Made by a program: the position numbers and the translations under genes
The notes under the pieces: generated by a model
The model's database searches: none
Told to the model about the DNA's origin: nothing
What the model saw: the letters and a program-made list of their open reading frames with translations, nothing else
Source: a virus
Direction: 5' to 3' (one strand)
Virus genome (UHGV): UHGV-0075699
Length of the DNA: 19,854 bases
Shown: positions 5,946 through 19,050 of the stretch, piece after piece
Numbering within the stretch: position 1 is the first letter of the stretch
How the letters are laid out: each line of letters starts with the position of its first letter

Positions 5946-7006
5946 TATGCTTTTATAATTGCGCCGATCGCCATAGCTCGATCAAGAAAACGGAACAGCA
6001 GCTCCAACTGCGTGCCATTCTTCTCTTCAAAGGCGTTAACATCGGCATGTAGCTCGTCGTGGCACTCTCTGCACAGAGGAAACACGAAGAGATCGTGGGC
6101 TTTGGTTGCGGTACCGCCCATGCCATGGCCGATGACATGATGCGGATCGTCAGCTGGTCTGCGGCAGCATTCGCATGGTTGATGCTTAACCCAGTCGGTA
6201 TAAGTCTTGCTTACCCAGCGACGGCGCTTTGGCCTGAGCATGAAAGATTCCGGCGATTCCGGATCGGCAGTCAGCGCAAGCCCCTTCGGCTGGTCCTGGT
6301 GCGCCTGGACATTTTCGTTGCGCCTGCATTGCCTTGCTGTGCCTGCAGCTGGCAGTTTCTCCTGCAGAATGCTGGTGGCCGGTAAAGTAGGCCGGATATC
6401 GCTTTCTTTATACACCGACAGGAACGGCTCTTCAGGCAACCCTAGACCACGCTGCGCCATCGTCTCCGTAATGGCATCGGCTATACCTGACTGAACTGCC
6501 CACCAGCACAACTCTGCGATTGAAAGAGAGCGTTCTTTGTTATAACCGAGCCCGATCAGCACAGTATCTATTACCCAGTCGACTACATTACGAAGTGCCA
6601 GCGCCTCGATAGCTGGAGTCGACTGCTCCCGCAGTTTATTGTCACAATGCCAGCACACCAGCAACGCACCAGGCGGATGTCGCATCGTTACCATCTCGTT
6701 ATGGTGGTACTCGGAATGAGGGTACTGGCACCTCTTCAGCCGGAGAAACAGCCACCGTTCAAGCGCTGGCAATCCACCAGCAGCACGAATCACACGCTCA
6801 TCGGAAAAGAATACGTGCAGGCTGGAATCCTCCGCTAAAGGTTGTCGGGCATCAGGGACACGACCAGATGGCAAGCGGGCCATATTTTGTGGTTCAGCCT
6901 CGACTAAAACACGCCCGGCAGAAAACAGGTGCATCAGATCACGGCCGGGCTTAAATAGAACCACGCCGAGGCGTGGCACAATCTCAGGGGTGAGTAACGC
7001 TCTCAT
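5945..7006 (-). CDS. Cys/His-rich nin-region protein, DUF968-like with HNH-like metal-binding C-terminus
   Basis: C-terminal region HQPCECCRRPADDPHHVIGHGMGG...FPLCRECHDELH has paired CxxC and His clusters typical of HNH/zinc-binding nucleases; a second Cys cluster (LLVCWHCDNK) lies mid-protein. Start overlaps the MTase stop. Confidence 0.45.
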   Translation of the reverse strand: MRALLTPEIVPRLGVVLFKPGRDLMHLFSAGRVLVEAEPQNMARLPSGRVPDARQPLAEDSSLHVFFSDERVIRAAGGLPALERWLFLRLKRCQYPHSEYHHNEMVTMRHPPGALLVCWHCDNKLREQSTPAIEALALRNVVDWVIDTVLIGLGYNKERSLSIAELCWWAVQSGIADAITETMAQRGLGLPEEPFLSVYKESDIRPTLPATSILQEKLPAAGTARQCRRNENVQAHQDQPKGLALTADPESPESFMLRPKRRRWVSKTYTDWVKHQPCECCRRPADDPHHVIGHGMGGTATKAHDLFVFPLCRECHDELHADVNAFEEKNGTQLELLFRFLDRAMAIGAIIKA

Positions 7007-8853
7007 GCAACCTCACGCCGACCAGAAACACAAATTTCAGGAAGGTTTGCTCTTACAATCGCCTCAGCAAAGGGCGGCGGCACGGCGTTTCCGCACCTGG
7101 CGACTTGTTTCTCTTTCGAGTACCTCTTGCCGCGGTAGTCACGATCAATGATGTACCAGTCAGGGAATCCCTGAGCGCGGTAAAGTTCATGCGGCTGCAG
7201 CATGCGCATTCCGATATCAACAATGCGGTAAACAATACCCTTAATCGTCACCAGTTCGCTGACGCCAAAAGAATTCAGGAACTCTTTGACCTGATCCGCC
7301 CGGCGCTCGTCGTAATCATTAGCCGCCAGCAGCGCGCGAACCTCTCCAACATGCTGACCTCCAGCGGTGATTGTCGGCATTGGTTCACTGGTGCGCTGGC
7401 CATCGCGGCAGGTACCGCGCAGTTTAACCAGATGAGACGTAACCAGCGCATGGTGATCGACTGTGGTAACTGAGTGTGCAGGATCGTCCAGTCCGACGCC
7501 CGGGCCGGTATAGTTCCCGCCGTAGTGTTTCGCCAAAAACGCAGTTGTTACGGCAAATTTATTGCCACCAGCTACAACTGTTCCCAGCGGTTTACGCAGA
7601 TTTAGAACGCGCGGCGACTGCCCTACACGTTCGCCATACCCCATCTGAATAAGTGTGGCCGCGACAAGCTGTGACTTCCCCCCGCCGCCAGCGGTAATTG
7701 TTGCGCTGGGTTCATCCGCCCGGTGGCCGATGCTGGCGCCGAACTGACGCGCGATAACTGGCGCAACCAGGCAGGAGCGAGACTGTTTAAGGATGGTATG
7801 AGCGGGTTTATTCAATGGCCGCGGTTTCGCCTGGTACTCGCTACCCCCATTACCTGCCAGGAATGGAACCAACGTCGGTAACGCCAGCGCATAACCGTGG
7901 GTTTTGGTGATGGTTTGCAGGGGATCGGCCAGCGACTGTCCGCGGAAGCAATCATATTTACCGCGTGTTGTGGTGTGGTTGCATTTGACGATGAACGGAT
8001 TATCACTTTCGACGACAAACCGCTGGATGCCGCGCGCTATCCGTTTCAACGTGTTAATGGCCAGCGGCTTTTTACGGTCAAATATCGATGGTGCAGGAAT
8101 AGACCAGTCGATACACTCAGCAGCTGTCCGCCATGGTGCCAAATTTCCGGATTTAACTGCTGCGGATTTAGGGTCACCGTGAGTGACTCCCGGCCAGGCA
8201 ATGGGTTTATCGTCACAACGCATCAACATGAAGAATCGCTTGCGGATCGTCGGAGCACCATAATCACTGGCACGCAGTTCGCGATATTCGACCTTATACC
8301 CGAGGCCAGCAATCAGTCGTTTGGCTTGTTTGCCATCCGAGGATATGCCGAGAAATTCGCAACATTCGTACAGAGCCGGGTGATCCGCAGGTATACCAGT
8401 GGAAAGCATTCCAACAAATGCCAGGAAGGTTTCACCAGAACGCTTAGGATCAGGACGCATCTCACATGAAAGCAGCGGGCCCCACGTTTTAAATTCTTCA
8501 ACATTTTCGAGAGCCATTACACGAGGGCGAACATCCAATGCCCAGCGAACAGATACCCAAGCCAGGCCACGAATCTCACGTTTTACCGGTTTACTGCCGC
8601 GCGCCTTTGAATAGTGGGTACAATCCGGGCTGAACCATGCAAACCAGACAGCCTTTCCACCTGTCGCAGCGACAGGGTCAACGTCAAAGACGTTTTCACA
8701 ATAATGAAGCGTGTCCGGGTGATTCGTCCGGTGCATGGCCACGGCGTTTTCGTCGTGGTTAATGGCAATATCAACGCTGCGGCCGATCGCCATTTCTATC
8801 CCGGTAGATGCCCCACCACCGCCAGCAAAATTATCAACAATCAGCTCACGCAT
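7003..8853 (-). CDS. DNA (cytosine-5)-methyltransferase with large variable/target-recognition region
   Basis: Motif I DNFAGGGGAS (AdoMet binding), motif IV SPDCTHYS (catalytic Pro-Cys), motif VI ENV, C-terminal CGNAVPPP (motif X). About 400 aa lie between motif VI and the C-terminal motifs. Confidence 0.85.
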   Translation of the reverse strand: MRELIVDNFAGGGGASTGIEMAIGRSVDIAINHDENAVAMHRTNHPDTLHYCENVFDVDPVAATGGKAVWFAWFSPDCTHYSKARGSKPVKREIRGLAWVSVRWALDVRPRVMALENVEEFKTWGPLLSCEMRPDPKRSGETFLAFVGMLSTGIPADHPALYECCEFLGISSDGKQAKRLIAGLGYKVEYRELRASDYGAPTIRKRFFMLMRCDDKPIAWPGVTHGDPKSAAVKSGNLAPWRTAAECIDWSIPAPSIFDRKKPLAINTLKRIARGIQRFVVESDNPFIVKCNHTTTRGKYDCFRGQSLADPLQTITKTHGYALALPTLVPFLAGNGGSEYQAKPRPLNKPAHTILKQSRSCLVAPVIARQFGASIGHRADEPSATITAGGGGKSQLVAATLIQMGYGERVGQSPRVLNLRKPLGTVVAGGNKFAVTTAFLAKHYGGNYTGPGVGLDDPAHSVTTVDHHALVTSHLVKLRGTCRDGQRTSEPMPTITAGGQHVGEVRALLAANDYDERRADQVKEFLNSFGVSELVTIKGIVYRIVDIGMRMLQPHELYRAQGFPDWYIIDRDYRGKRYSKEKQVARCGNAVPPPFAEAIVRANLPEICVSGRREVA

Positions 8854-11756: not shown

Positions 11757-11934
11757 TCGGTTTCACTCCTCTGGATCTATAGTCACCCACAGCCCACTCG
11801 GTAAAACTGTGGTTCACCTCTTCCCAGCCACCGGGTACTCTTACGGCATAGCAATACGTGACCGCGCCTTTGCCACCACGAACCGGCAATGCGCGGAGTT
11901 GCGAACGCGGGATATTTGCGGTTAAATTGCTCAT
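11737..11934 (-). CDS. Hypothetical small protein (65 aa)
   Basis: ATG at 11934 overlaps the TGA stop of the upstream regulator (ATGA coupling). [40 protein letters not shown]...; no motif recognised. Confidence 0.4.
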
Positions 11935-12488
11935 GCGGATTTCTCCATACACATTGATTTATTCGCCACGACGCCCGGAGCTGCACACTCGCGGGCGTCA
12001 CTCTTTTCTGGCTGGCAGAAAATGCGATAAACAAGAATCGAATGCTCCTGAAGTTTTTGAATAGAGCTATACAGCTCTCCATCGATCGCCGCGCGTTCAT
12101 GCGGCTCAATCACACCATCTTCGATCGCTACCCGAATCTGTTGCGAATAGGCTGTAATCTGTTCGATAACCTCAAGCAGTCCCTGATTGATATCTGCGTT
12201 ATCCACTTCTTCAATATCCGCTAGCGGAACAAAGACCCCGCCGGACTGGCGCGCGACCGCATCGGTGATGTGACTTGCGCCACCAGCACGCTGCAGCACC
12301 ATCGCCCACTCAAGCGGGAAGATCTGATCACCAGCGACGCGCAGGCGGTTGAATAAGGCGTTTTCAGTTATACCCAGCCATTCAGCCGCCTCGGCATAAC
12401 CTCCAGGCAGTTCAGTAATCGTTTTCTTGATCGCGGCCACCAACCAGGCTGGTTGACGCTCTACTTTCCAAATTGGCTCATTACCCAC
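11931..12488 (-). CDS. CII-like phage regulatory protein (Phage_CP76 / 186-CII-like family)
   Basis: Segment [55 protein letters not shown]...[18 protein letters not shown] fits the remembered conservation pattern of this family; position directly after cro; GTG start with AGGGGGGG RBS. Confidence 0.55.
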
Positions 12489-12532: not shown

Positions 12533-12733
12533 TTATGTTTTGGAATAGATATCTGGCCTAAGCTGCGATCTGGTGATGGCACCGGAGGTGCTTTTCTCCA
12601 ACTTTTTTGCTAGGTCAAAACCAGCTTTCTTGTAGCCATTGAAAACCAAACGTAGGTAACCGGTAGTGGAGCCAACGTTTGTTGCTAATTTGCTCTGTTG
12701 TTCTTTGGTTAATGAATCCCAAAACTCTTTCAT
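12533..12733 (-). CDS. Cro-like repressor (YdaS-type HTH)
   Basis: 66-aa protein from the ATG at 12733 (MKEFWDSLTKEQQSKLATNVGSTTGYLRLVFNGYKKAGFDLAKKLEKSTSGAITRSQLRPDIY), strong AGGAGG SD 7 nt upstream; divergent from the CI repressor gene across an operator-rich intergenic region. Confidence 0.7.
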   Translation of the reverse strand: MKEFWDSLTKEQQSKLATNVGSTTGYLRLVFNGYKKAGFDLAKKLEKSTSGAITRSQLRPDIYSKT

Positions 12734-12820
12734 ATATGTACCTCCTGTGTACATATTACACGAAAGAAATGAACCTTCAAGGTACTTGTACCTTTACGGT
12801 ACACGCGGTTTAATTTCCCT
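12734..12820. promoter_or_regulatory. OR-like divergent promoter/operator region between cro and cI
   Basis: Palindromes ATATGTAC-N7-GTACATAT (12734-12756) and AAGGTAC-TT-GTACCTT (12779-12794). Candidate pR on minus (-35 TTGAAG 12775-12780, -10 TAATAT 12753-12758) and candidate pRM on plus (-35 TTGTAC 12786-12791, -10 TTTAAT 12809-12814) that would start at or next to the cI ATG (leaderless). Confidence 0.55.
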
Positions 12821-13495
12821 ATGAAAACAATCCAGGAAATCAGGCGTTTAAACGCCAGAAAGTTGAGAGATGGTGTTGGTGGAAATACTTTTTTTGCCAA
12901 TATGATTGATCGCGAGCCTACTCAAACAAGCCGGTTCATGGGGGACGGCGCGACAAAAAACATCGGCGATGCTATGGCAAGGCACATTGAAAAATGTTTC
13001 GACTTGCCAACTGGGTGGTTAGATCAAGAACACCAAACCACAAACGTGGCAAAGGCCCCTGATGTCTCCGATACAAATAGAAATATCACGATGGTTCCGG
13101 TTATATCCTGGGTACAGGCAGGAGCATGGACCGAAGTTGGTTATGCTGAGGTAGATTTGAATAGTACGGAAAACTATCCCTGTCCTGTCCCTTGTGGCCC
13201 GATGACATACATCCTTCGAGTAATTGGCGACTCCATGATCGATGAGTATCGCCCTGGTGATATGATTTTTGTTGACCCTGAGGTCCCCGCAGTCCATGGC
13301 GATGATGTTATCGCTTTGATGCACGACTCTGGAGAAACAACATTTAAGCGCCTGATTGAAGATGCCGGTAACCGTTATTTAAAAGCTCTTAATTCGAACT
13401 GGCCTGAACCCTATATAAAAATCAACGGTAATTGCTCAATCATTGGAACCGTGATTTTTTCAGGAAAACCAAGAAGATATAGAATAAAAAATTAA
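12821..13495 (+). CDS. CI-type prophage repressor (N-terminal HTH, C-terminal LexA-like S24 peptidase domain)
   Basis: C-terminal domain has the Ser-Lys dyad context (VIGDSM ... TFKRL) of S24 autocleaving repressors; N-terminal region is a small DNA-binding domain; divergent from cro; followed by a strong terminator. Confidence 0.85.
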   Translation: MKTIQEIRRLNARKLRDGVGGNTFFANMIDREPTQTSRFMGDGATKNIGDAMARHIEKCFDLPTGWLDQEHQTTNVAKAPDVSDTNRNITMVPVISWVQAGAWTEVGYAEVDLNSTENYPCPVPCGPMTYILRVIGDSMIDEYRPGDMIFVDPEVPAVHGDDVIALMHDSGETTFKRLIEDAGNRYLKALNSNWPEPYIKINGNCSIIGTVIFSGKPRRYRIKN

Positions 13496-13505
13496 TCCTT
13501 CCCTC

Positions 13506-13530
13506 AAAACCTGCTGCGGCAGGTTTTTTT
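13506..13530 (+). terminator. Rho-independent terminator of cI
   Basis: AAAACCTGCTGCGGCAGGTTTTTTT: perfect hairpin (CCTGC-UGC-GCAGG) flanked by an A-run and a 7-T run, 11 nt after the cI stop. Confidence 0.75.
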
Positions 13531-13534
13531 ACGC

Positions 13535-13570
13535 TTGACAATGTACCTATCAGATACATAATGTACCTAA
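13535..13570 (+). promoter_or_regulatory. pL-like early-left promoter with operator repeats
   Basis: TTGACA (13535-13540), 16-bp spacer, CATAAT (13557-13562); two copies of ATGTACCTA (13541-13549 and 13561-13569) overlap the spacer and start region. The same TGTACCT motif occurs in the OR palindromes. Confidence 0.55.
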
Positions 13571-14005
13571 AAGAAACAACATGAAAGCGCATTCCATCTT
13601 CATCCGTCGTGGGGACTGGTTTGTTACTGAAGGAGTGCGCTTCCAGTTGTGGTAATTGCGGCTATGCGCACGTGACGAGCCAAACCCGTTCAATGAATGC
13701 GTTTCCGGGTAGTGTACGTCGCCGGTTATGGCTTAACCCGGCAGGTGGAGGCAAGGGCTTTACCCGGGCGGGTGGAGCCCCCCCCGCCACAACTCGAATT
13801 GCTGTGTGTAGTCTTTGCCCAGTCTCCCCGATGGGCCCTTTTTTTACACAACAGGAAAGAGCACCGCCGGCGCCGGGAACTAACCCAGTCCGGATCCGGG
13901 TTCAAAGTGTGGACCCTCTCTCCTTCAGGCTCTGAACTGGTGCTCTCCCCTGTTGTGTATGGAGAAACTAATGGCGGTGGCAGCCGCCTTTCGAGAGGGT
14001 AAACC

Positions 14006-14377
14006 ATGAGTAATGATCGTATGACAGTCGTACCCGATTTCCTGGGTGAGCTGGACGCCGGCGTGTTCATGAACAAGATTGCGGCGGCTCTTAATACCAC
14101 CGCGCTCGGCGTTCTGAACAACGGCAACAAAGGCAAGGTAGTCCTCACCTTTGATTTTGAGCGTATGGGCAACTCTGTTGAAGAGAAGCGCGTCAAGATT
14201 AAGCACAAGCTGAACTACAGCACACCAACTCCCCGTGGCAAAGCGTCGGAAGAGGACACCACCGAAACACCAATGTGGGTCAACAAAGGCGGAAAGCTCA
14301 CCATCCTGCAGGAAGATCAGGGGCAGCTGTTCGGGATCACCGGCACGGTGGATGGAAAGCTTAAAGCGGCTCAGTGA
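14006..14377 (+). CDS. Hypothetical early-left protein (123 aa), YfdP-like by size and position
   Basis: ORF with GAGGG RBS 7 nt upstream; first gene after the pL leader; followed by DUF2303-like and HD-domain genes in the order recalled for E. coli CPS-53 yfdP-yfdQ-yfdR. Confidence 0.5.
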   Translation: MSNDRMTVVPDFLGELDAGVFMNKIAAALNTTALGVLNNGNKGKVVLTFDFERMGNSVEEKRVKIKHKLNYSTPTPRGKASEEDTTETPMWVNKGGKLTILQEDQGQLFGITGTVDGKLKAAQ

Positions 14378-14433
14378 TCCGCACCAACAAATTCACTGAT
14401 ACCACTTCGCTCATCAGTTAATAAGGAATTTTT

Positions 14434-15261
14434 ATGTCTCAGTTAGACAGCGGTACTTTTCAGCAGGTTAAAGACCTGGTGCTTTCCGGTTATCACCTGA
14501 ACGATATCCACGGTCTGGCCTGTCCGACGACCATTCTCCCGGAGGGAACCGAGGTCGCGAGTCTTGAGCGTTTCTCCCTGGAACGCTTCCGCTTCCGTGG
14601 CGCTATGGACACTACCAGCATTGATGATTTCGTTCGCTATTCCGCTGGCTATGCCAAAGAAGATGAAAAAGCACGTTGCTTCATCGATGCCGATAACATG
14701 CTGGCGCGCTCTATCTTCAACATCGGTACGCTGGATAACCCAGGCCACGCTGATAACGTCGCGTCAATCAAACTGAAAAAAACCGCCCCATTCCGCGCGC
14801 TGCTGTCGATCAACGGCGATCACCTTAATCAGAAGCAAATCGCCGAATGGCTGGAAGACTGGAGTGATTACCTTATTGCGTTCGATGCCGACGGCAAAAC
14901 GATGAAAATCGCCCAGGCAGCACAGGCAGTTCGCCGCGTCACCATTCAGCAAACTAACGCCTCCGATCATGAGGATGGTGATTTCAGTGGCAAAAAATCG
15001 CTGATGCAGAGTATCGAAGCCAGCAGTAAAGACGTGATGCCGGTAGCGTTCGAGTTCAAATGTGTGCCGTATGAAGGACTCGGCGAACGTGCATTCAGCC
15101 TGCGCAACAGTCTGCTGAAAAGTTCTGACCCGGTATTCGTCCTGCGTATCGTCCAGCTGGAAGCCCAGGAAGAAGCTATCGCTAATGAGTTCCGCGATCT
15201 GCTGACTGGTAAGTTCGACGGCAAGCCAGTGGAAACCTTTATCGGCAACTTCAAAGCCTGA
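14434..15261 (+). CDS. DUF2303-like protein (YfdQ-like), 275 aa
   Basis: ORF with TAAGGAA RBS; size and gene order correspond to the recalled CPS-53 yfdQ; no catalytic motif recognised by eye. Confidence 0.5.
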   Translation: MSQLDSGTFQQVKDLVLSGYHLNDIHGLACPTTILPEGTEVASLERFSLERFRFRGAMDTTSIDDFVRYSAGYAKEDEKARCFIDADNMLARSIFNIGTLDNPGHADNVASIKLKKTAPFRALLSINGDHLNQKQIAEWLEDWSDYLIAFDADGKTMKIAQAAQAVRRVTIQQTNASDHEDGDFSGKKSLMQSIEASSKDVMPVAFEFKCVPYEGLGERAFSLRNSLLKSSDPVFVLRIVQLEAQEEAIANEFRDLLTGKFDGKPVETFIGNFKA

Positions 15262-15275
15262 TTGCTCTCCATTAA

Positions 15276-15300
15276 ATCCCCGGCGCCGCGGGGATTTATT
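15276..15300 (+). terminator. Possible intrinsic terminator or attenuator after the DUF2303 gene
   Basis: ATCCCCG-GCGCCG-CGGGGAT hairpin (7-bp stem) followed by TTATT; weak U-tract, so it may be a partial terminator. Confidence 0.35.
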
Positions 15301-15393
15301 AAAGCGTAATCCTGCAATTAATCGCCACCTAGCGAGGGATTTCTACACCCAAAATTCAGCGCTATGCAGAGCGCTATTAAACGGAGAAATACG

Positions 15394-15921
15394 ATGAGCT
15401 TTATTCAAACACTGTCTGGCAAGCACTTTAACTATAACGATATTCAAGAGGACGCTATCGTCATTGAGGACATTGCAACAGCCCTCTCGCACATCTGCCG
15501 CTTTGCCGGCCATCTGCCGGAATTCTACAGCGTCGGGCAACATAGCGTTCTGGTTAGCCACCTTGTGCCGCAGGAGTTCGCACTCGAGGCTTTACTGCAT
15601 GACGCGGCAGAGGCTTATATGCAAGACATCCCTGCACCACTCAAGCGATTGCTGCCCGACTATCAGGTGATAGAAGCACGTGTTGATGCGGCGATCCGCA
15701 AAAAGTTTGGTCTGCCGGCGGAGCAGCACCCTACCGTTAAATATGCCGACTTAGTCATGCTGGCCAGCGAACGCCGTGATTTCGAGATCGACGACGGCAC
15801 TCACTGGCCTATGCTCGACGGAATTATTCCCACCGACCAATTCGTTATCAATCCCGTTCGCCCAGGTCAGTCCTATGGGATGTTCATGAACCGATTCCAC
15901 CAGCTGATGGAGCGGCGCTAA
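15394..15921 (+). CDS. HD-domain phosphohydrolase (YfdR-like)
   Basis: From the ATG at 15394 (GGAG RBS): MSFIQTLSGKHFNYNDIQEDAIVIEDIATALSHICRFAGHLPEFYSVGQHSVLVSHLVPQEFALEALLHDAAEAYMQDIPAPLKRLLPDY... has the H...HD metal-binding signature (HSVL...LLHDAAEAY) and is collinear with the recalled E. coli YfdR sequence pattern. Confidence 0.7.
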   Translation: MSFIQTLSGKHFNYNDIQEDAIVIEDIATALSHICRFAGHLPEFYSVGQHSVLVSHLVPQEFALEALLHDAAEAYMQDIPAPLKRLLPDYQVIEARVDAAIRKKFGLPAEQHPTVKYADLVMLASERRDFEIDDGTHWPMLDGIIPTDQFVINPVRPGQSYGMFMNRFHQLMERR

Positions 15922-16118
15922 TGGCACACGTAAAAGTAAAAGACCTCGTTGCGGCAGCTCATGCCGCATCACAGGGTTTGCCACCAGCAGAGGCAAAACT
16001 GATGCGTGATATCGCTACCCGTCTGGATGTGACTTATGTCGCGCTGACTGAATCGATGGATATCAATACCGCGCTGTCCGCCGATATTGCCAAGCTGCGC
16101 GAGGTTAGCAATGACTGA
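15921..16118 (+). CDS. Hypothetical small protein (65 aa)
   Basis: ATG overlaps the stop of the HD-domain gene (TAATG); stop overlaps the next gene start. Confidence 0.45.
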   Translation: MAHVKVKDLVAAAHAASQGLPPAEAKLMRDIATRLDVTYVALTESMDINTALSADIAKLREVSND

Positions 16119-16656
16119 TATCGCCCGACTGTTAACCAGTATCAAGCGCCGAGCAGCCCACGTAAAAGAATTCGGTGACGATATTACGTTTGTAAAGCTC
16201 GAAGACCTCGACGCGCTGGTAGAGGCGCTGGAGAAGGCGCAGACCCAATCCTCGAAGTGGCTTGAGGCCTACCACAAAGCCGTATCGATTGGCGCCCGAT
16301 ATGAGGAGCGCATCGCCGAGCTGGAGTTTATCCGCACCAGCGCTGACAAGGTGCAACGTGAGTTTGCCGAAGAACTGGGATGTGCTGGCGACAACGAGTC
16401 GATTTTGCAGGCTATTGAAGACCTGAAGGTACAAAGCGAAACCGCGCTCGAACTGAAGCAGGCAGCATTAGCCGATAATGCCCACCTCAAGCTTGAGCTG
16501 GAGATTCTGGGGTCCCGCACCGTCACCGTGAAGCTGCCTGACTTACGGCAGATTGTATCTGGGGACAGATATGTCTGGTCTGATGGCGTTTATAACTACA
16601 GCCAGGACGTAAAGGTAGCGCTGGCCTCCGCTGGCATCAAGTGGGAGGCTGAGTGA
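16111..16656 (+). CDS. Ead/Ea22-like coiled-coil protein (hypothetical)
   Basis: Start placed at ATG 16111 (ATGACTGA overlap with upstream stop). Long predicted coiled coil (LEDLDALVEALEKAQ...IEDLKVQSETALELKQAALADNAHLKLELE) and conserved-looking C-terminus (TVTVKLPDLRQ...); resembles the Ead/Ea22 family commonly found in this region of lambdoid phages. Confidence 0.45.
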   Translation: MTDIARLLTSIKRRAAHVKEFGDDITFVKLEDLDALVEALEKAQTQSSKWLEAYHKAVSIGARYEERIAELEFIRTSADKVQREFAEELGCAGDNESILQAIEDLKVQSETALELKQAALADNAHLKLELEILGSRTVTVKLPDLRQIVSGDRYVWSDGVYNYSQDVKVALASAGIKWEAE

Positions 16657-16856
16657 TGGCAGATACAACCGCTGAGTGGAGCCTTTCCCTCGATACGCAA
16701 TGCCCGAATTGCAAACACGTTTTCGATTTACGCCCAGAACTGGTTGATTGTGCTTCACCTGTCGAGGCTTGCGAAACAAATACCGTTGCTACGCGCGACT
16801 ATGAGACAGCGTGCCAGGAGTGCGGTCATGAGTTCACTGTCGATTTCATCTACTGA
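16656..16856 (+). CDS. Small zinc-ribbon protein
   Basis: CPNC ... CQEC pairs (two CxxC motifs about 35 aa apart); GGGAGG RBS 8 nt upstream of the ATG; start overlaps the previous stop. Confidence 0.5.
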   Translation: MADTTAEWSLSLDTQCPNCKHVFDLRPELVDCASPVEACETNTVATRDYETACQECGHEFTVDFIY

Positions 16857-16868
16857 AGGAGCCAACCA

Positions 16869-17045
16869 ATGACCAAATCAACCATAACCAGAGAGCGCCT
16901 GGAAAAAATTAAATCATGGCGTGAAACCTATGGAGCTGGAAGCAACGTAATGCTGCCAGCGGAAGAGGCTGAAGAACTGGCGCGTATAGCGCTGGCCGCA
17001 ATGCTCGCAGCCGTTCCACCAGCGTCGACACAGGAGAATATTTAA
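16869..17045 (+). CDS. Hypothetical small protein (58 aa)
   Basis: Manually translated ORF (below ORF-track cutoff) MTKSTITRERLEKIKSWRETYGAGSNVMLPAEEAEELARIALAAMLAAVPPASTQENI with GGAG RBS; fills the gap between the zinc-ribbon and exonuclease genes. Confidence 0.4.
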   Translation: MTKSTITRERLEKIKSWRETYGAGSNVMLPAEEAEELARIALAAMLAAVPPASTQENI

Positions 17046-17046
17046 C

Positions 17047-17616
17047 GTGAACCATTTAATGATCGACCTCGAAACTATGGGCAATAAGCCTGCTGCGCCA
17101 ATTGTTGCGATCGGCGCTGTATTCTTCGACCCGAAAAACGGTGAGCTGGGAGCCGAGTTCTATGTGGCCGTCGACCTCGCTAGCGCTATGGGTCAGGGGG
17201 CAACTCCTGACGGTGACACAATTCTGTGGTGGCTGAAGCAATCAGCTGAGGCCAGGGCCGCGATTTGTACCGACGACACTCATCACATCGATGAAGCACT
17301 TTATGAACTGAGTGACTTCATCAGTCGCAACTCTGAAAACCCGCGTTATCTGAAGGTCTGGGGCAACGGCGCCAACTTCGATAATGTCATTCTGCGAACT
17401 GCGTATGAACGAGCGGGCCGTATATGCCCATGGCAGTTCTGGAATGATAGCGACGTGCGCACCATGGTGCTGCTTGGTCGCCAGTTGGATTTCGATCCGA
17501 AGCGCGATATGCCGTTCGATGGTGTAGCCCACAATGCGCTGGCTGATGCTCGCCACCAGGTGAAATACGTGTCAGCAATTTGGCAGCGCCTGCTGCATAC
17601 CAGCACCGAAGAATAA
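17047..17616 (+). CDS. DnaQ-like 3'-5' exonuclease (DEDDh family)
   Basis: MIDLETMG (Exo I Asp/Glu), VWGNGANFD (Exo II Asp) and GVAHNALADARH (Exo III His and Asp, DEDDh type) in the expected order and spacing. Confidence 0.75.
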   Translation: MNHLMIDLETMGNKPAAPIVAIGAVFFDPKNGELGAEFYVAVDLASAMGQGATPDGDTILWWLKQSAEARAAICTDDTHHIDEALYELSDFISRNSENPRYLKVWGNGANFDNVILRTAYERAGRICPWQFWNDSDVRTMVLLGRQLDFDPKRDMPFDGVAHNALADARHQVKYVSAIWQRLLHTSTEE

Positions 17617-17659
17617 ACCAAAACGCCCGGGTGCAGCCGGGCTGTATGGAGATCCTGTC

Positions 17660-17869
17660 ATGGCAAAACTAATGAAGGCGAGTCAATGGGGCAAACGCGA
17701 ATTTGCCAAAGACTCTATTCCGGATAACCGAACCATTAAACGTTGGGTTGAAAATGGGCTACTCACAGGGAAGATCGTCGACGGTTCTGTTTTCGTCTTC
17801 GAGTCTGAAAAATGGGGAGTCGACTCAATGGTTAATCATACGGTTCGACAGCTAATAAATGAAGGTTGA
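17660..17869 (+). CDS. xis: Excisionase (Xis-like DNA-binding protein)
   Basis: 69-aa protein immediately upstream of and overlapping int; segment NRTIKRWVENGLLTGKIVDGSVFVFES resembles lambda Xis (ETVRRWVRECRIFPPPVKDGREYLFHES). Confidence 0.65.
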   Translation: MAKLMKASQWGKREFAKDSIPDNRTIKRWVENGLLTGKIVDGSVFVFESEKWGVDSMVNHTVRQLINEG

Positions 17870-17871
17870 CC

Positions 17872-19050
17872 ATGGCAGCCAGACCAAGAAAAAGAGAATA
17901 TCGCCACCTTCCAGAATATCTTTTATTTGATAAAGATCGCGGTGTTTATAAATTTACTCTTATAACAGGAAAGAAAAAGAACCTTGGTAAAGATCGAGCT
18001 ATGGCGATTGCTGTAGCTCGCGAATACAACCTAAGAATGAGACCATTAAACGTACCATCTGTTGATGTATTAATTAGGGAATCAGGTGGTATCGCTGGTG
18101 AGGCCAAACCATTTGCTGAATATGTAGACCATATTATGAACCGAGCAATTGAGAATGAGCGGCCATCACAAAATACCCTCGACGATTGGAATAATGATGC
18201 CATTCGTGTGAAAGAATTTTTTATCAATATTCCCGCTTGCGATATTGAACTGGAGCATGTAAACGCCTACATAAACCATTATCATGCTGAAGCTTCAGCA
18301 AACGTACAGAATAGGAAAGTCAGCTTCCTTAAAAAACTTTTCTCCTATGCGGTCGATGAATCATTAATGTTTGATAACCCGGCCACACGTAAAAAGATGC
18401 GCAGGACTGAGGAGAAGAAACGGCAGCGCCTGTCACTCGAACACTTTAAAGCCATCAGACGCGCCGCCGAGCCATGGCTACGGACTGCGATGGATTTAGC
18501 ATTGCAGACGACGCATGCGCGCCTTGAGGTGTCACGAATCCGATATTCAATCAGTGAGCCAAAAGATGGCGTCTGCGGGTGTGTATGGCTTGCACAGCCG
18601 GAAAACGGGATTTATGGCACGCTGTACATTCACCGCCAGAAAGTACAGAAGAAAGAGGCCTCGCATGTCGCAATCCCGATCGGGGAAGAGTTGAAGCGGA
18701 TTATTGACGAAAGCCGCGATAATGTAGCCAGCCCGTTTATCGTTCACCGGATTCCAGATAGGCAGGTTAAGCGTAGTAAAGAAGTTTCACACCCAACACA
18801 GGTTGCGCCGGACTATCTGAGCCGGTCCTTTTCAGCGGTGCGCGACAAACTTGGCTTATGCGACAAACTGGCGATGGACGAAAGACCAACCTTTCACGAA
18901 ATTCGAGCGCTGGCCGCCCATCTTTTTGATCAGCAAGGTATCGATCCGCAAGGACGAATGGCGCACAGTGATGCGAAGTCGACCAAGATTTACACGCAAA
19001 ACCATATCGATTGGGTTGTCGTTCCACATGGTGAAATTAAAGCCGGATAA
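17872..19050 (+). CDS. int: Tyrosine integrase (lambda Int family)
   Basis: C-terminal catalytic region contains PTFHEIRALAAHLF (H-x-x-R box, compare lambda PTFHELRSLSARLY) and the tyrosine-containing STKIYTQNH; arm-binding-type basic N-terminus. Start placed at ATG 17872 (GAAGG RBS); ORF track begins at TTG 17866. Lies next to the tRNA-derived att core. Confidence 0.9.
   Translation: MAARPRKREYRHLPEYLLFDKDRGVYKFTLITGKKKNLGKDRAMAIAVAREYNLRMRPLNVPSVDVLIRESGGIAGEAKPFAEYVDHIMNRAIENERPSQNTLDDWNNDAIRVKEFFINIPACDIELEHVNAYINHYHAEASANVQNRKVSFLKKLFSYAVDESLMFDNPATRKKMRRTEEKKRQRLSLEHFKAIRRAAEPWLRTAMDLALQTTHARLEVSRIRYSISEPKDGVCGCVWLAQPENGIYGTLYIHRQKVQKKEASHVAIPIGEELKRIIDESRDNVASPFIVHRIPDRQVKRSKEVSHPTQVAPDYLSRSFSAVRDKLGLCDKLAMDERPTFHEIRALAAHLFDQQGIDPQGRMAHSDAKSTKIYTQNHIDWVVVPHGEIKAG

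Follow-up and report, generated by a model that had tools for sequence, protein, structure and literature searches.

A yfdP-yfdQ-yfdR-like gene trio opens the early-left operon of an ST64B/phiNP/LLS-type lambdoid prophage

The early-left operon in the stretch of viral DNA analysed here (the window, 19,854 nucleotides, UHGV-0075699) opens with three genes that, on sequence comparison, are orthologues of the yfdP, yfdQ and yfdR genes carried by CPS-53 (KpLE1), a cryptic prophage of E. coli K-12. The gene block itself was already known, through RefSeq names, Pfam and PHROG families, a study in K-12 and a 2025 phage description, and the finding of the trio mainly confirms annotation. What is new is that the yfdP-yfdQ pair, and not the trio, is the invariant evolutionary unit. 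We infer that the most likely function of the trio is control of host replication.

The three genes and their protein families

The trio occupies the following positions:

14006-14377, plus strand: yfdP-like gene, 123 aa (phrog_204 and BLASTP to K-12 YfdP)
14434-15261, plus strand: yfdQ-like gene (DUF2303), 275 aa (Pfam and BLASTP to K-12 YfdQ)
15394-15921, plus strand: yfdR-like HD-domain phosphohydrolase gene, 175 aa from the ATG at 15394 (BLASTP to K-12 YfdR)

The CPS-53 reference proteins were taken from NC_000913.3 and compared by BLASTP. Pairwise alignment gave clear similarity to the E. coli proteins in all three cases, with 59% identity over 122 aa for YfdP (E 2e-49), 57% over 277 aa for YfdQ (E 3e-113) and 65% over 175 aa for YfdR (E 9e-88). 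The K-12 proteins have 120, 274 and 178 aa, and their genes have the same order, strand and sizes as in the window. Thus, the correspondence in order and size proposed in an earlier note, made from the sequence alone, is borne out. The gap between yfdP and yfdQ in the window is 56 nt.

The YfdP family is PHROG 204 (window protein to phrog_204, E 1.6e-41); it has no Pfam model and comprises 396 cluster representatives. The middle protein had been called DUF2303-like, correctly, as it scores 215.2 bits against Pfam DUF2303 (PF10065) with a cut-off of 26.6, residues 31-273 covering profile positions 28-269 of 269. Residues that are invariant in a 59-sequence alignment of the YfdQ family (identity range 27-92%) are all present, these being T60, P103, H105, D142, R167 and G271 in window numbering. 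A profile search from a three-sequence alignment gave largely the close Klebsiella relatives that the single-sequence query had also given. The family is moderately acidic, with a median pI of 5.4 and a net charge of about -9.

YfdP is predicted to be a small alpha plus three-strand beta protein. The predicted folds of YfdP and YfdQ gave no informative match to PDB releases up to April 2026, in fold libraries from which 9o7m was absent, and fold comparison detected no nucleic-acid-binding fold. By profile-profile comparison the YfdP and YfdQ families are unrelated (probability 0.2%). The newer PDB entry 9o7m, 'YfdQ Protein', is 34% identical to window YfdQ over residues 34-273 and contains 36 chains; a YfdQ homologue therefore forms a large homo-oligomer in a solved structure. 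Its sequence comes from a Xanthomonas phage of the MET23-P3/Soumapaz type, and a literature search found no publication for PDB 9o7m or MET23-P3.

The yfdR reading frame is open from 15364 (15364-15921, 185 aa), but the start is most likely the ATG at 15394 rather than 15364, because this ATG has a GGAGA Shine-Dalgarno sequence 7 nt before it and is also where the alignment with K-12 YfdR begins. Numbered from there, the HD motif (H..HD..D) consists of H50, H69-D70 and D119. None of these residues varies among 56 distinct homologues or in Atu1052 (PDB 2gz4), in agreement with the HD motif noted earlier for the third protein. YfdR matches phrog_318, 'deoxyribonucleoside 5' monophosphate phosphatase', with E 7.6e-97, and Atu1052 with E 7e-10 over residues 5-171. 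Its match to Pfam YfbR-like (PF12917) is limited to residues 66-114 and, at 19.5 bits, falls under the curated cut-off of 25.9; these comparisons place it in a YfdR lineage separate from YfbR-like PF12917. The earlier statement that the activity of the HD protein is not established went too far, since RefSeq names K-12 YfdR a 5'-deoxynucleotidase and the protein is thus no biochemical blank. PMC4776307 also cites Zimmerman 2008 on dNMP-specific phosphatase activity. By homology to K-12 YfdR, the window protein would be both a 5'-deoxynucleotidase and a DnaA-binding protein.

Promoter, leader and downstream genes of the operon

The trio is flanked by the following features:

12821-13495: cI ORF
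about 13509-13530, just 5' of pL: cI terminator hairpin and T-run (read from the sequence)
13535-13568, plus strand: pL promoter with two operator copies (promoter scan)
13569-14005, plus strand: untranslated structured pL leader (alignment with nine related loci, folding)
13795-13846, plus strand: RprA-like segment with intrinsic terminator (Rfam, similarity to rprA)
15274-15297, plus strand: GC-rich 9-bp hairpin AAAUCCCCG / CGGGGAUUU, then AUUAAAG (read directly from the sequence)
15921-19050, plus strand: remaining operon, tightly packed or overlapping (ORF list, Pfam, PHROGs)
15921-16118, plus strand: 65-aa gene
between the 65-aa gene and the exonuclease, plus strand: 189-aa gene, 67-aa Zn-ribbon gene and 58-aa gene
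17047-17616, plus strand: Rv2179c-like DEDDh 3'-5' exonuclease (Pfam/PHROGs)
17660-17869, plus strand: 69-aa ORF in excisionase position, directly before int
17866-19050, plus strand: integrase

In the promoter scan, the -35 (TTGACA, 13535-13540) and -10 (CATAAT, 13557-13562) elements of pL matched 11 of 12 consensus positions. Exact copies of the operator word AATGTACCT lie at 13540-13548 and 13560-13568, both within pL, and the interval between cro and cI has two copies with one mismatch each, at 12735 and 12768. The trio had been described as the first three genes from pL; these are indeed the first protein-coding genes, but a non-coding leader of ∼435 nt precedes them. Aligned with nine related loci, the leader shows conserved blocks, indels that are not multiples of three and a 5' stem (13584-13596 paired with 13631-13643) with one compensatory change; its fold has z = -2.7. 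Three leader ORFs (24 codons at 13581-13655, 101 aa and 108 aa) were rejected as genes, because the relatives vary by non-triplet indels and keep the paired segments. An antiterminator RNA like put of HK022 was also considered for the leader; the HK022 record carries no put annotation.

The 3' half of RprA, a host sRNA, is also present in the leader as a copy that includes the terminator. Segment 13743-13846 scores 45.7 bits against Rfam RprA (RF00034; E 1.3e-4), short of the gathering threshold of 70. Nearly all E. coli genomes searched (5424 of 5426) have a chromosomal rprA that matches a 54-nt stretch of the leader with 90.9% identity, and the leader is identical to K-12 rprA at 27/27 positions (rprA nt 57-83), the likeness being close only in the 3' half (rprA nt 57-105). 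A literature search on 'RprA-like' found no paper. If the leader yields a stable RNA, it would join StxS, the known precedent, as a phage transcript from close to a promoter that takes part in the sRNA networks of the host.

The hairpin at 15274-15297 lies in the 132-nt spacer between yfdQ and yfdR and may serve as a weak terminator or act in the processing or stability of the mRNA. Downstream, the 65-aa gene comes after yfdR in 49 of 80 closely related viral-contig loci. A check of the nine operon ORFs inside the window for recombination functions (Pfam and PHROGs) returned only the DEDDh Rv2179c-like exonuclease and unknowns, with no SSAP, lambda-Exo/YqaJ-type nuclease, SSB, Gam/Abc2 or other RecBCD inhibitor. 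Comparison of the operon products with YfdS, YfdT, YpdJ and TorI by BLASTP gave no YfdS or YfdT homologue (best E 0.05), and Pfam gave no DUF551 match in the operon. NCBIfam matched no operon protein, and PADLOC did not match the trio. As a separate observation, the Chi sequence GCTGGTGG occurs 17 times in the 19.9-kb window, where 0.64 sites are expected (mean of 200 shuffles, 0/200 of which reached 17).

Distribution and possible functions of the pair and the trio

Of the 163 loci compared, 161 have yfdP immediately 5' of yfdQ; they include phages of Vibrio, Xanthomonas, Pseudomonas, Thalassomonas and Acinetobacter. In these phages the pair sits among recombination or replication genes and has no HD gene beside it: the neighbourhood is ERF-YqaJ-DnaQ in Vibrio and Thalassomonas phages, ERF, exonuclease and SSB genes are near the pair in the Xanthomonas phage, and the order in the Acinetobacter phage is DUF2800-DUF2815-P-Q-PolA. 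Overall, 23 of 166 loci lack an HD gene beside the pair, among them every locus of Vibrio type. All 78 close relatives keep the full P-Q-R order, as do 62 of 80 lambdoid loci at greater distance; the genes downstream are mosaic. Since many phages have the pair without any HD gene, its function is independent of YfdR. Among conserved genes of unassigned function in the early operons of temperate phages, YfdP-YfdQ is one of the commoner, and its only phenotype to date is inhibition of chromosome initiation on over-expression. Recognition of the pair as a unit within replication and recombination neighbourhoods narrows the range of worthwhile experiments.

That phenotype comes from K-12. Multicopy yfdQ and yfdR together with yfdS or yfdT block oriC initiation, yfdQ and yfdR both being required and yfdP dispensable (Noguchi & Katayama 2016, PMC4776307); the statement in the earlier note that the CPS-53 yfdQRST cluster inhibits initiation via DnaA was accurate. 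YfdR binds DnaA domain I; the purified protein, which binds via Phe46, has a moderate inhibitory effect on both DiaA-DnaA and DnaB-DnaA binding (PMC4776307). In the same study, oriC replication in vitro was inhibited by YfdQRST extracts but not by YfdR alone, over-initiation was not suppressed by yfdQR on its own, YfdR was the only one of these proteins to be recovered with DnaA in pull-downs from YfdQRST extracts, and the effects required multicopy expression, deletion having no replication phenotype (PMC4776307).

By analogy, we tentatively favour, at somewhat less than an even chance, a model in which the early module damps host oriC initiation, YfdR acting on DnaA and YfdQ (with YfdP) contributing a second activity. 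On loss of CI, transcription from pL would pass through the structured leader of 435 nt, then yfdP, yfdQ and yfdR, and continue to int, and the module would act on DNA replication early after induction. YfdR, presumed to be a low-affinity dNMP phosphatase, would bind DnaA domain I in competition with DiaA and DnaB, as has been demonstrated for K-12 YfdR, its orthologue with 65% identity. YfdQ, probably with YfdP in a high-molecular-weight assembly, would provide the second activity needed against oriC initiation. Host chromosome initiation would thereby be damped, leaving DnaB and precursors for the phage replicon.

Consistent with this model are the orthology, the promoter, operators and operon packing, the P-Q-R order in 78/78 close relatives, the K-12 experiments, the invariant HD residues, the 36 chains of 9o7m and the position of the P-Q pair inside recombination or replication modules of distant phages. 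Against it, K-12 yfdQR alone is insufficient, and the phenotype, which needs yfdS or yfdT, is not simply transferable to a window that has yfdQ and yfdR of the CPS-53 inhibitor set and lacks both yfdS and yfdT. The multicopy requirement in K-12, the recovery of YfdR only in DnaA pull-downs, the many phages that have the pair but no HD gene and the uninformative YfdP and YfdQ folds also count against it. Moreover, yfdP is dispensable in K-12 but is the tightest partner of yfdQ, so the DnaA phenotype may not be the native role of the pair.

A less probable reading, to which we would give about one chance in a few, is that YfdP-YfdQ is an accessory of phage recombination or replication, for instance an assembly for the protection, organisation or transfer of DNA ends or replication intermediates, with YfdR a separately acquired nucleotide-pool enzyme and the K-12 DnaA effect a side effect of over-expression. 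All the non-enterobacterial phages examined have the pair, with no HD gene, in the company of genes for ERF, YqaJ- or DnaQ-type exonucleases, SSB, DNA polymerase or helicase. In Burkholderia phage JC1, RecT and YqaJ precede the DUF2303 gene by a few genes (PMC9144972). The large YfdQ oligomer fits such a role, as does the weak sensitivity of a K-12 yfdQ deletion to MMS and H2O2, in the form in which PMC4776307 cites it. However, the YfdQ family is moderately acidic and no nucleic-acid-binding fold was detected, and the pair occurs both with complete Rec modules and with none, from which Zheng et al. judged an unrecognised recombinase unlikely (PMC12315714). The trio-bearing phage LLS grows better with RecBCD, so the pair is no RecBCD inhibitor there. 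Two narrower candidates were set aside on the same observations, the pair as a novel recombinase and the pair as a RecBCD inhibitor.

It is improbable that the trio is an anti-defence module, in which the HD enzyme would cut a (cyclic-)nucleotide immune signal or a modified dNMP and the YfdQ oligomer with YfdP would either sequester a signal or block a protein of a defence system. The role in host manipulation or anti-defence proposed in the earlier note is a hypothesis, and no result here favours anti-defence. The trio lies directly after pL, a position that in lambdoid phages is often taken by host-takeover genes; some HD enzymes act on cyclic nucleotides, and the HD site is intact; and large homo-oligomers, such as that of YfdQ, are common among known signal sponges. 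Nevertheless, PADLOC, NCBIfam and the literature gave no anti-defence link for the trio, the closest characterised HD relative acts on dNMPs, in distant phages the surrounding genes belong to DNA metabolism and not to accessory or anti-defence islands, and the pair is conserved too evenly across hosts for a system-specific counter-defence. Least likely of all is a co-inherited mosaic block with no joint function, YfdR alone reshaping deoxynucleotide pools as a dNMP phosphatase. In its favour, YfdR homologues are annotated as such, the HD gene is missing from the 23 loci and a hairpin-bearing spacer separates yfdQ from yfdR. Against it, the P-Q-R order persists despite variable downstream genes, and in K-12 a single phenotype depends genetically on both yfdQ and yfdR (PMC4776307).

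A further, more novel reading has a rather low probability. YfdP and YfdQ might form a two-component, megadalton-scale assembly with its own fold that controls a DNA transaction (replication initiation or recombination intermediates) in many gammaproteobacterial phages, and that in enterobacterial lambdoids is coupled to a DnaA-targeting HD protein and gated by an RprA-mimic pL leader.

Comparison with known systems

The YfbR-type HD 5'-deoxynucleotidases and Atu1052 (2gz4) share the H..HD..D motif and overall length with window YfdR, whereas the YfdR lineage differs from the YfbR type in the additional DnaA-binding property of K-12 YfdR. The phage of 9o7m resembles the window in that its DUF2303 gene is preceded by a yfdP homologue, but it has no HD gene beside the pair, and the neighbours include ERF, exonuclease and SSB genes.

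CPS-53 has the same three families in the same order, strand and sizes, with the HD motif conserved. There, however, yfdS (DUF551), yfdT and torI follow, whereas unrelated genes follow yfdR in the window; and CPS-53, a defective prophage, has no cI-pL context, while the block in the window stands behind an apparently intact cI-pL.

A further likeness is to phages of the kind to which the window itself belongs, the ST64B/phiNP/LLS-type lambdoid prophages. Its host is probably Klebsiella. The best protein matches are from Klebsiella and Raoultella, and Klebsiella phage Kp4866-6 matches 89% of the region at 92% identity. Because the trio at the head of the early-left operon has been published for this same phage type, as sb35-37 of ST64B and gp37-39 of LLS (the 'LLS functional type'), the arrangement was already known (Zheng et al. 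2025, PMC12315714). As in the window, these phages have the trio directly after the immunity region, with 75-78% DNA identity across it, no recognisable Rec module and a very high Chi density. They differ from it in host range and in their mosaic downstream genes, and there is no difference in kind.

The early-left operon and its first three genes

The window can be read as part of a lambdoid prophage, namely its immunity and early-left region, with the following features.

11931-12488, minus strand: cII-like gene
12533-12754, minus strand: cro-like gene
12821-13495, plus strand: cI-like repressor gene
about 13509-13530: terminator hairpin with a T-run, located by reading of the sequence
13535-13562, plus strand: pL, a near-consensus sigma-70 promoter (TTGACA at 13535, 16-nt spacer, CATAAT to 13562)
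14006-14377, plus strand: first open reading frame after pL, yfdP-like, 123 aa
14434-15261, plus strand: second open reading frame after pL, yfdQ-like, 275 aa
15364-15921, plus strand: third open reading frame after pL, yfdR-like, 185 aa
17866-19050, plus strand: integrase gene, ending the tightly packed gene run downstream of the trio

The promoter at 13535-13562 is pL. It is overlapped by two exact copies of AATGTACCT, and one-mismatch copies lie in the cro-cI interval. The trio lies downstream of pL on the same strand, where the earlier note had placed it. That note had equated the three genes, in size and order, with yfdP-yfdQ-yfdR of CPS-53, a cryptic prophage of E. coli K-12, and pairwise protein comparison bears this out: identity to the K-12 proteins is 59% for YfdP (E 2e-49), 57% for YfdQ (E 3e-113) and 65% for YfdR (E 9e-88), with the same gene order and near-identical lengths. 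The proteins match PHROG families 204, 210 and 318, respectively, the last annotated as a deoxyribonucleoside 5'-monophosphate phosphatase. The middle protein, described as DUF2303-like, is a full-length member of that family (Pfam PF10065; 215 bits). The HD motif claimed for the third protein is intact, with H50, H69-D70 and D119 invariant in 56 distinct homologues and aligning with the HD protein Atu1052 (PDB 2gz4). The sole coordinate correction concerns the start of the third gene, which is most likely ATG 15394 rather than ATG 15364; the former is preceded by a GGAGA Shine-Dalgarno sequence and matches the K-12 YfdR start, while the latter has neither. Thus, the observation and family assignments of the note are correct, and its account of the literature is sound.

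The 132-nt yfdQ-yfdR spacer contains a 9-bp GC-rich hairpin (15274-15297, plus strand) followed by AUUAAAG, which may act as a weak terminator, or as a site of mRNA processing or stability that sets the YfdQ:YfdR ratio. The trio's operon also carries, just ahead of the small open reading frame preceding int, a gene for an Rv2179c-like DEDDh 3'-5' exo(ribo)nuclease (17047-17616, plus strand; PF16473, E 3e-74; phrog_255), a homologue of which is found at 34 of 83 related loci.

The pL leader

The 435-nt stretch from pL to yfdP was read as non-coding because relatives show non-triplet indels and keep the paired segments. Conserved structured blocks span the first ∼180 nt of the pL transcript (13576-13760, plus strand), with a 13-bp stem at the extreme 5' end of the leader (13584-13596 with 13631-13643) that has a compensatory change in one lineage (locus L035).

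Rfam gave a match to RprA at 13743-13846 (plus strand) with a score of 45.7 bits (E 1.3e-4), obtained in E-value mode and below the gathering score of 70. Positions 13795-13848 are 90.9% identical over 54 nt to chromosomal rprA (5424 of 5426 E. coli genomes), and nt 57-83 of K-12 rprA are matched 27/27, with an RprA-like terminator hairpin and U7 following. The core ATTGCTGTGTG[T/A]AGTCTT occurs about 210 nt upstream of the yfdP start at 49 of 169 related loci, and is kept even where a different stem replaces the terminator stem. Judged by its sequence, the 3' half of RprA, a host sRNA, is present in the leader as a copy (core 13795-13846). Given the RprA-like terminator hairpin, the trio sits behind a terminator, and a terminated pL transcript of about 280 nt would carry this half of a host sRNA. 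Three readings of the element are conceivable: an sRNA mimic produced from pL, a terminator that has been borrowed, or one part of an attenuator. StxS (PMC7547250) is a precedent in concept for a phage transcript of this kind; a limited literature check found no published description of the leader element itself. Since no N-like open reading frame lies between pL and the leader terminator, a cis-acting (put-like) antiterminator RNA in the leader is conceivable. The leader block 13633-13753 recurs with 77-89% identity in unannotated DNA of other phages, namely the lytic Klebsiella phages LASTA, SJM3, SopranoGao and ZX1 and the P1-like phage D6. The RprA-like leader merits separate attention.

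Conservation and protein properties of the yfdP-yfdQ pair

Among 80 viral contigs with a YfdQ 77-96% identical to that of the window, the order yfdP-yfdQ-yfdR is kept at every locus with enough flank, and the genes downstream of yfdR are mosaic. A distant set combined eight phages from the phage collection (Escherichia phages Flotzy and mEp460, an Stx2-converting phage, and one phage each of Xanthomonas, Vibrio, Thalassomonas, Pseudomonas and Acinetobacter) with another 80 contigs that a divergent alignment brought up. Overall, YfdQ has a YfdP homologue directly upstream at 161 of 163 loci, and in one of the two remaining cases YfdQ is frameshifted. The HD gene (yfdR) comes next after the pair at 143 of 166. 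It is absent from 11/11 Vibrio-type loci and from the Xanthomonas, Pseudomonas, Thalassomonas and Acinetobacter phages examined. Thus, the evolutionary unit is the yfdP-yfdQ pair, not the trio, and among the phages examined yfdR has been added only in the enterobacterial lambdoid ones.

In three ST64B-like contigs (L042, L047 and L057, about 6965-7123), the yfdR homologue is cut to about 52 codons with int directly next, so the HD gene can be lost with yfdP-yfdQ intact.

A PDB sequence search found entry 9o7m ('YfdQ Protein'), with 36 chains, all of a single sequence that shares 34% identity with the window YfdQ and comes from a Xanthomonas phage of the MET23-P3/Soumapaz type. In Soumapaz (locus L002, 5475-6729) a yfdP homologue is directly upstream of yfdQ; this YfdP has no PDB entry, and the literature search found no publication for 9o7m. 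Neither of the two fold libraries contains the entry, and the newer one extends to 8 April 2026; a later release would fit this. In the AlphaFold2 model of YfdQ (pLDDT 82), the N-terminal helix and linker are weakly predicted and lead into an alpha/beta core whose loop at 174-194 is disordered; that of YfdP (pLDDT 91.6) has three long antiparallel strands, one long helix packed on them and an extended tail. Profile comparison gave no relationship between the two families. Members of the YfdQ family are moderately acidic. The YfdP family comprises 396 cluster representatives; because nearly all of the matches listed are stand-alone proteins of 105-135 aa, domain fusion offers no functional hint. 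A DUF2303 protein was unexpectedly present in purified virions of Burkholderia phage JC1 (PMC9144972), and in an E. coli strain under beta-lactam exposure another was reported as the protein with the strongest induction; both observations would suit a large assembly that is abundant and made early after induction.

Possible roles and comparison with known phages

The inhibition of replication initiation given in the note for CPS-53 yfdQRST is accurately described. In multicopy, yfdQ and yfdR with either yfdS or yfdT suppress over-initiation and inhibit initiation at oriC, yfdP being unnecessary; purified YfdR binds DnaA via Phe46 and competes moderately with DiaA and DnaB, in vitro it does not inhibit initiation on its own, and deletion of the genes in K-12 gives no replication phenotype (Noguchi & Katayama, PMC4776307).

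The expression context, gene linkage, intact HD site and oligomeric state of a YfdQ homologue are established, and the rest is inference. The likeliest reading, which we hold tentatively, is that the trio acts on DNA replication early after induction: DnaA domain I would be the target of YfdR, a second necessary activity would come from YfdQ with YfdP, and host initiation would be damped in favour of the phage replicon. This is weakened by the lack of a yfdS or yfdT homologue in the window, since K-12 yfdQR alone is inactive; by yfdP being dispensable in K-12 yet the tightest partner of yfdQ; and by the wide occurrence of the pair without the HD gene.

Less probable is the main rival, in which the pair functions in recombination or replication of the phage itself, and the DnaA effect is an artefact of over-expression. 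In the distant phages examined, the pair lies inside DNA-transaction modules. It follows ERF, a YqaJ-domain protein and, at some loci, a DnaQ-like exonuclease in the Vibrio and Thalassomonas phages; in Soumapaz it precedes ERF, an exonuclease and SSB, which lie a few genes further downstream. The module of Acinetobacter phage 4316 comprises DUF2800, DUF2815 (which we take to be a T7 gp2.5-like SSB family), the pair, DNA polymerase I, VRR-NUC, DUF551 and a helicase. Zheng, Casjens, Davidson, Amundsen & Smith (PMC12315714), who note that YfdQ and YfdP have no known function, argue that they are unlikely to be hidden recombination proteins. An anti-defence role for the trio is improbable and has no direct support, and a purely coincidental block of three genes, the most doubtful of all, is hard to square with the conserved gene order and the joint genetic requirement in K-12.

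In phage 4316 (locus L088, 4527-5754) the annotation splits the YfdQ homologue, which lies between DUF2815 and DNA polymerase I, into two DUF2303 fragments, apparently through a frameshift or a sequencing error; the DUF551 gene of this module is of the YfdS type.

What the YfdP-YfdQ pair does is a real question, made more tractable by the finding of a pair rather than a trio, by the replication and recombination neighbourhoods and by the new oligomeric structure.

Chi (GCTGGTGG) occurs 17 times in the 19.9-kb window against 0.64 expected, a count reached in 0 of 200 shuffles (positions include 1879, 6371, 8883, 12280, 15897, 15981, 17016 and 19164, 8 of the 17). As the early-left operon in the window also has no Rec module, the prophage belongs to the 'no Rec module, high Chi' class of Zheng et al. 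(PMC12315714). An anti-RecBCD function is unlikely, because phage LLS, which has the trio, shows better growth with RecBCD (PMC12315714).

Nothing in these results would surprise a phage specialist. Exactly these three genes are common at the head of the early-left operon among lambdoid phages of the ST64B/phiNP/LLS type (PMC12315714), and K-12 YfdR is named 5'-deoxynucleotidase in RefSeq. The window's region has 92% DNA identity to Klebsiella phage Kp4866-6 and 75-78% to LLS, Flotzy, phiNP and ST64B, and its YfdQ shares 92% identity with Klebsiella entries annotated as 'YfdQ family protein'. With the trio published for these phages and its close matches annotated, the window holds a further copy of a known, named block in an arrangement already known and annotated.
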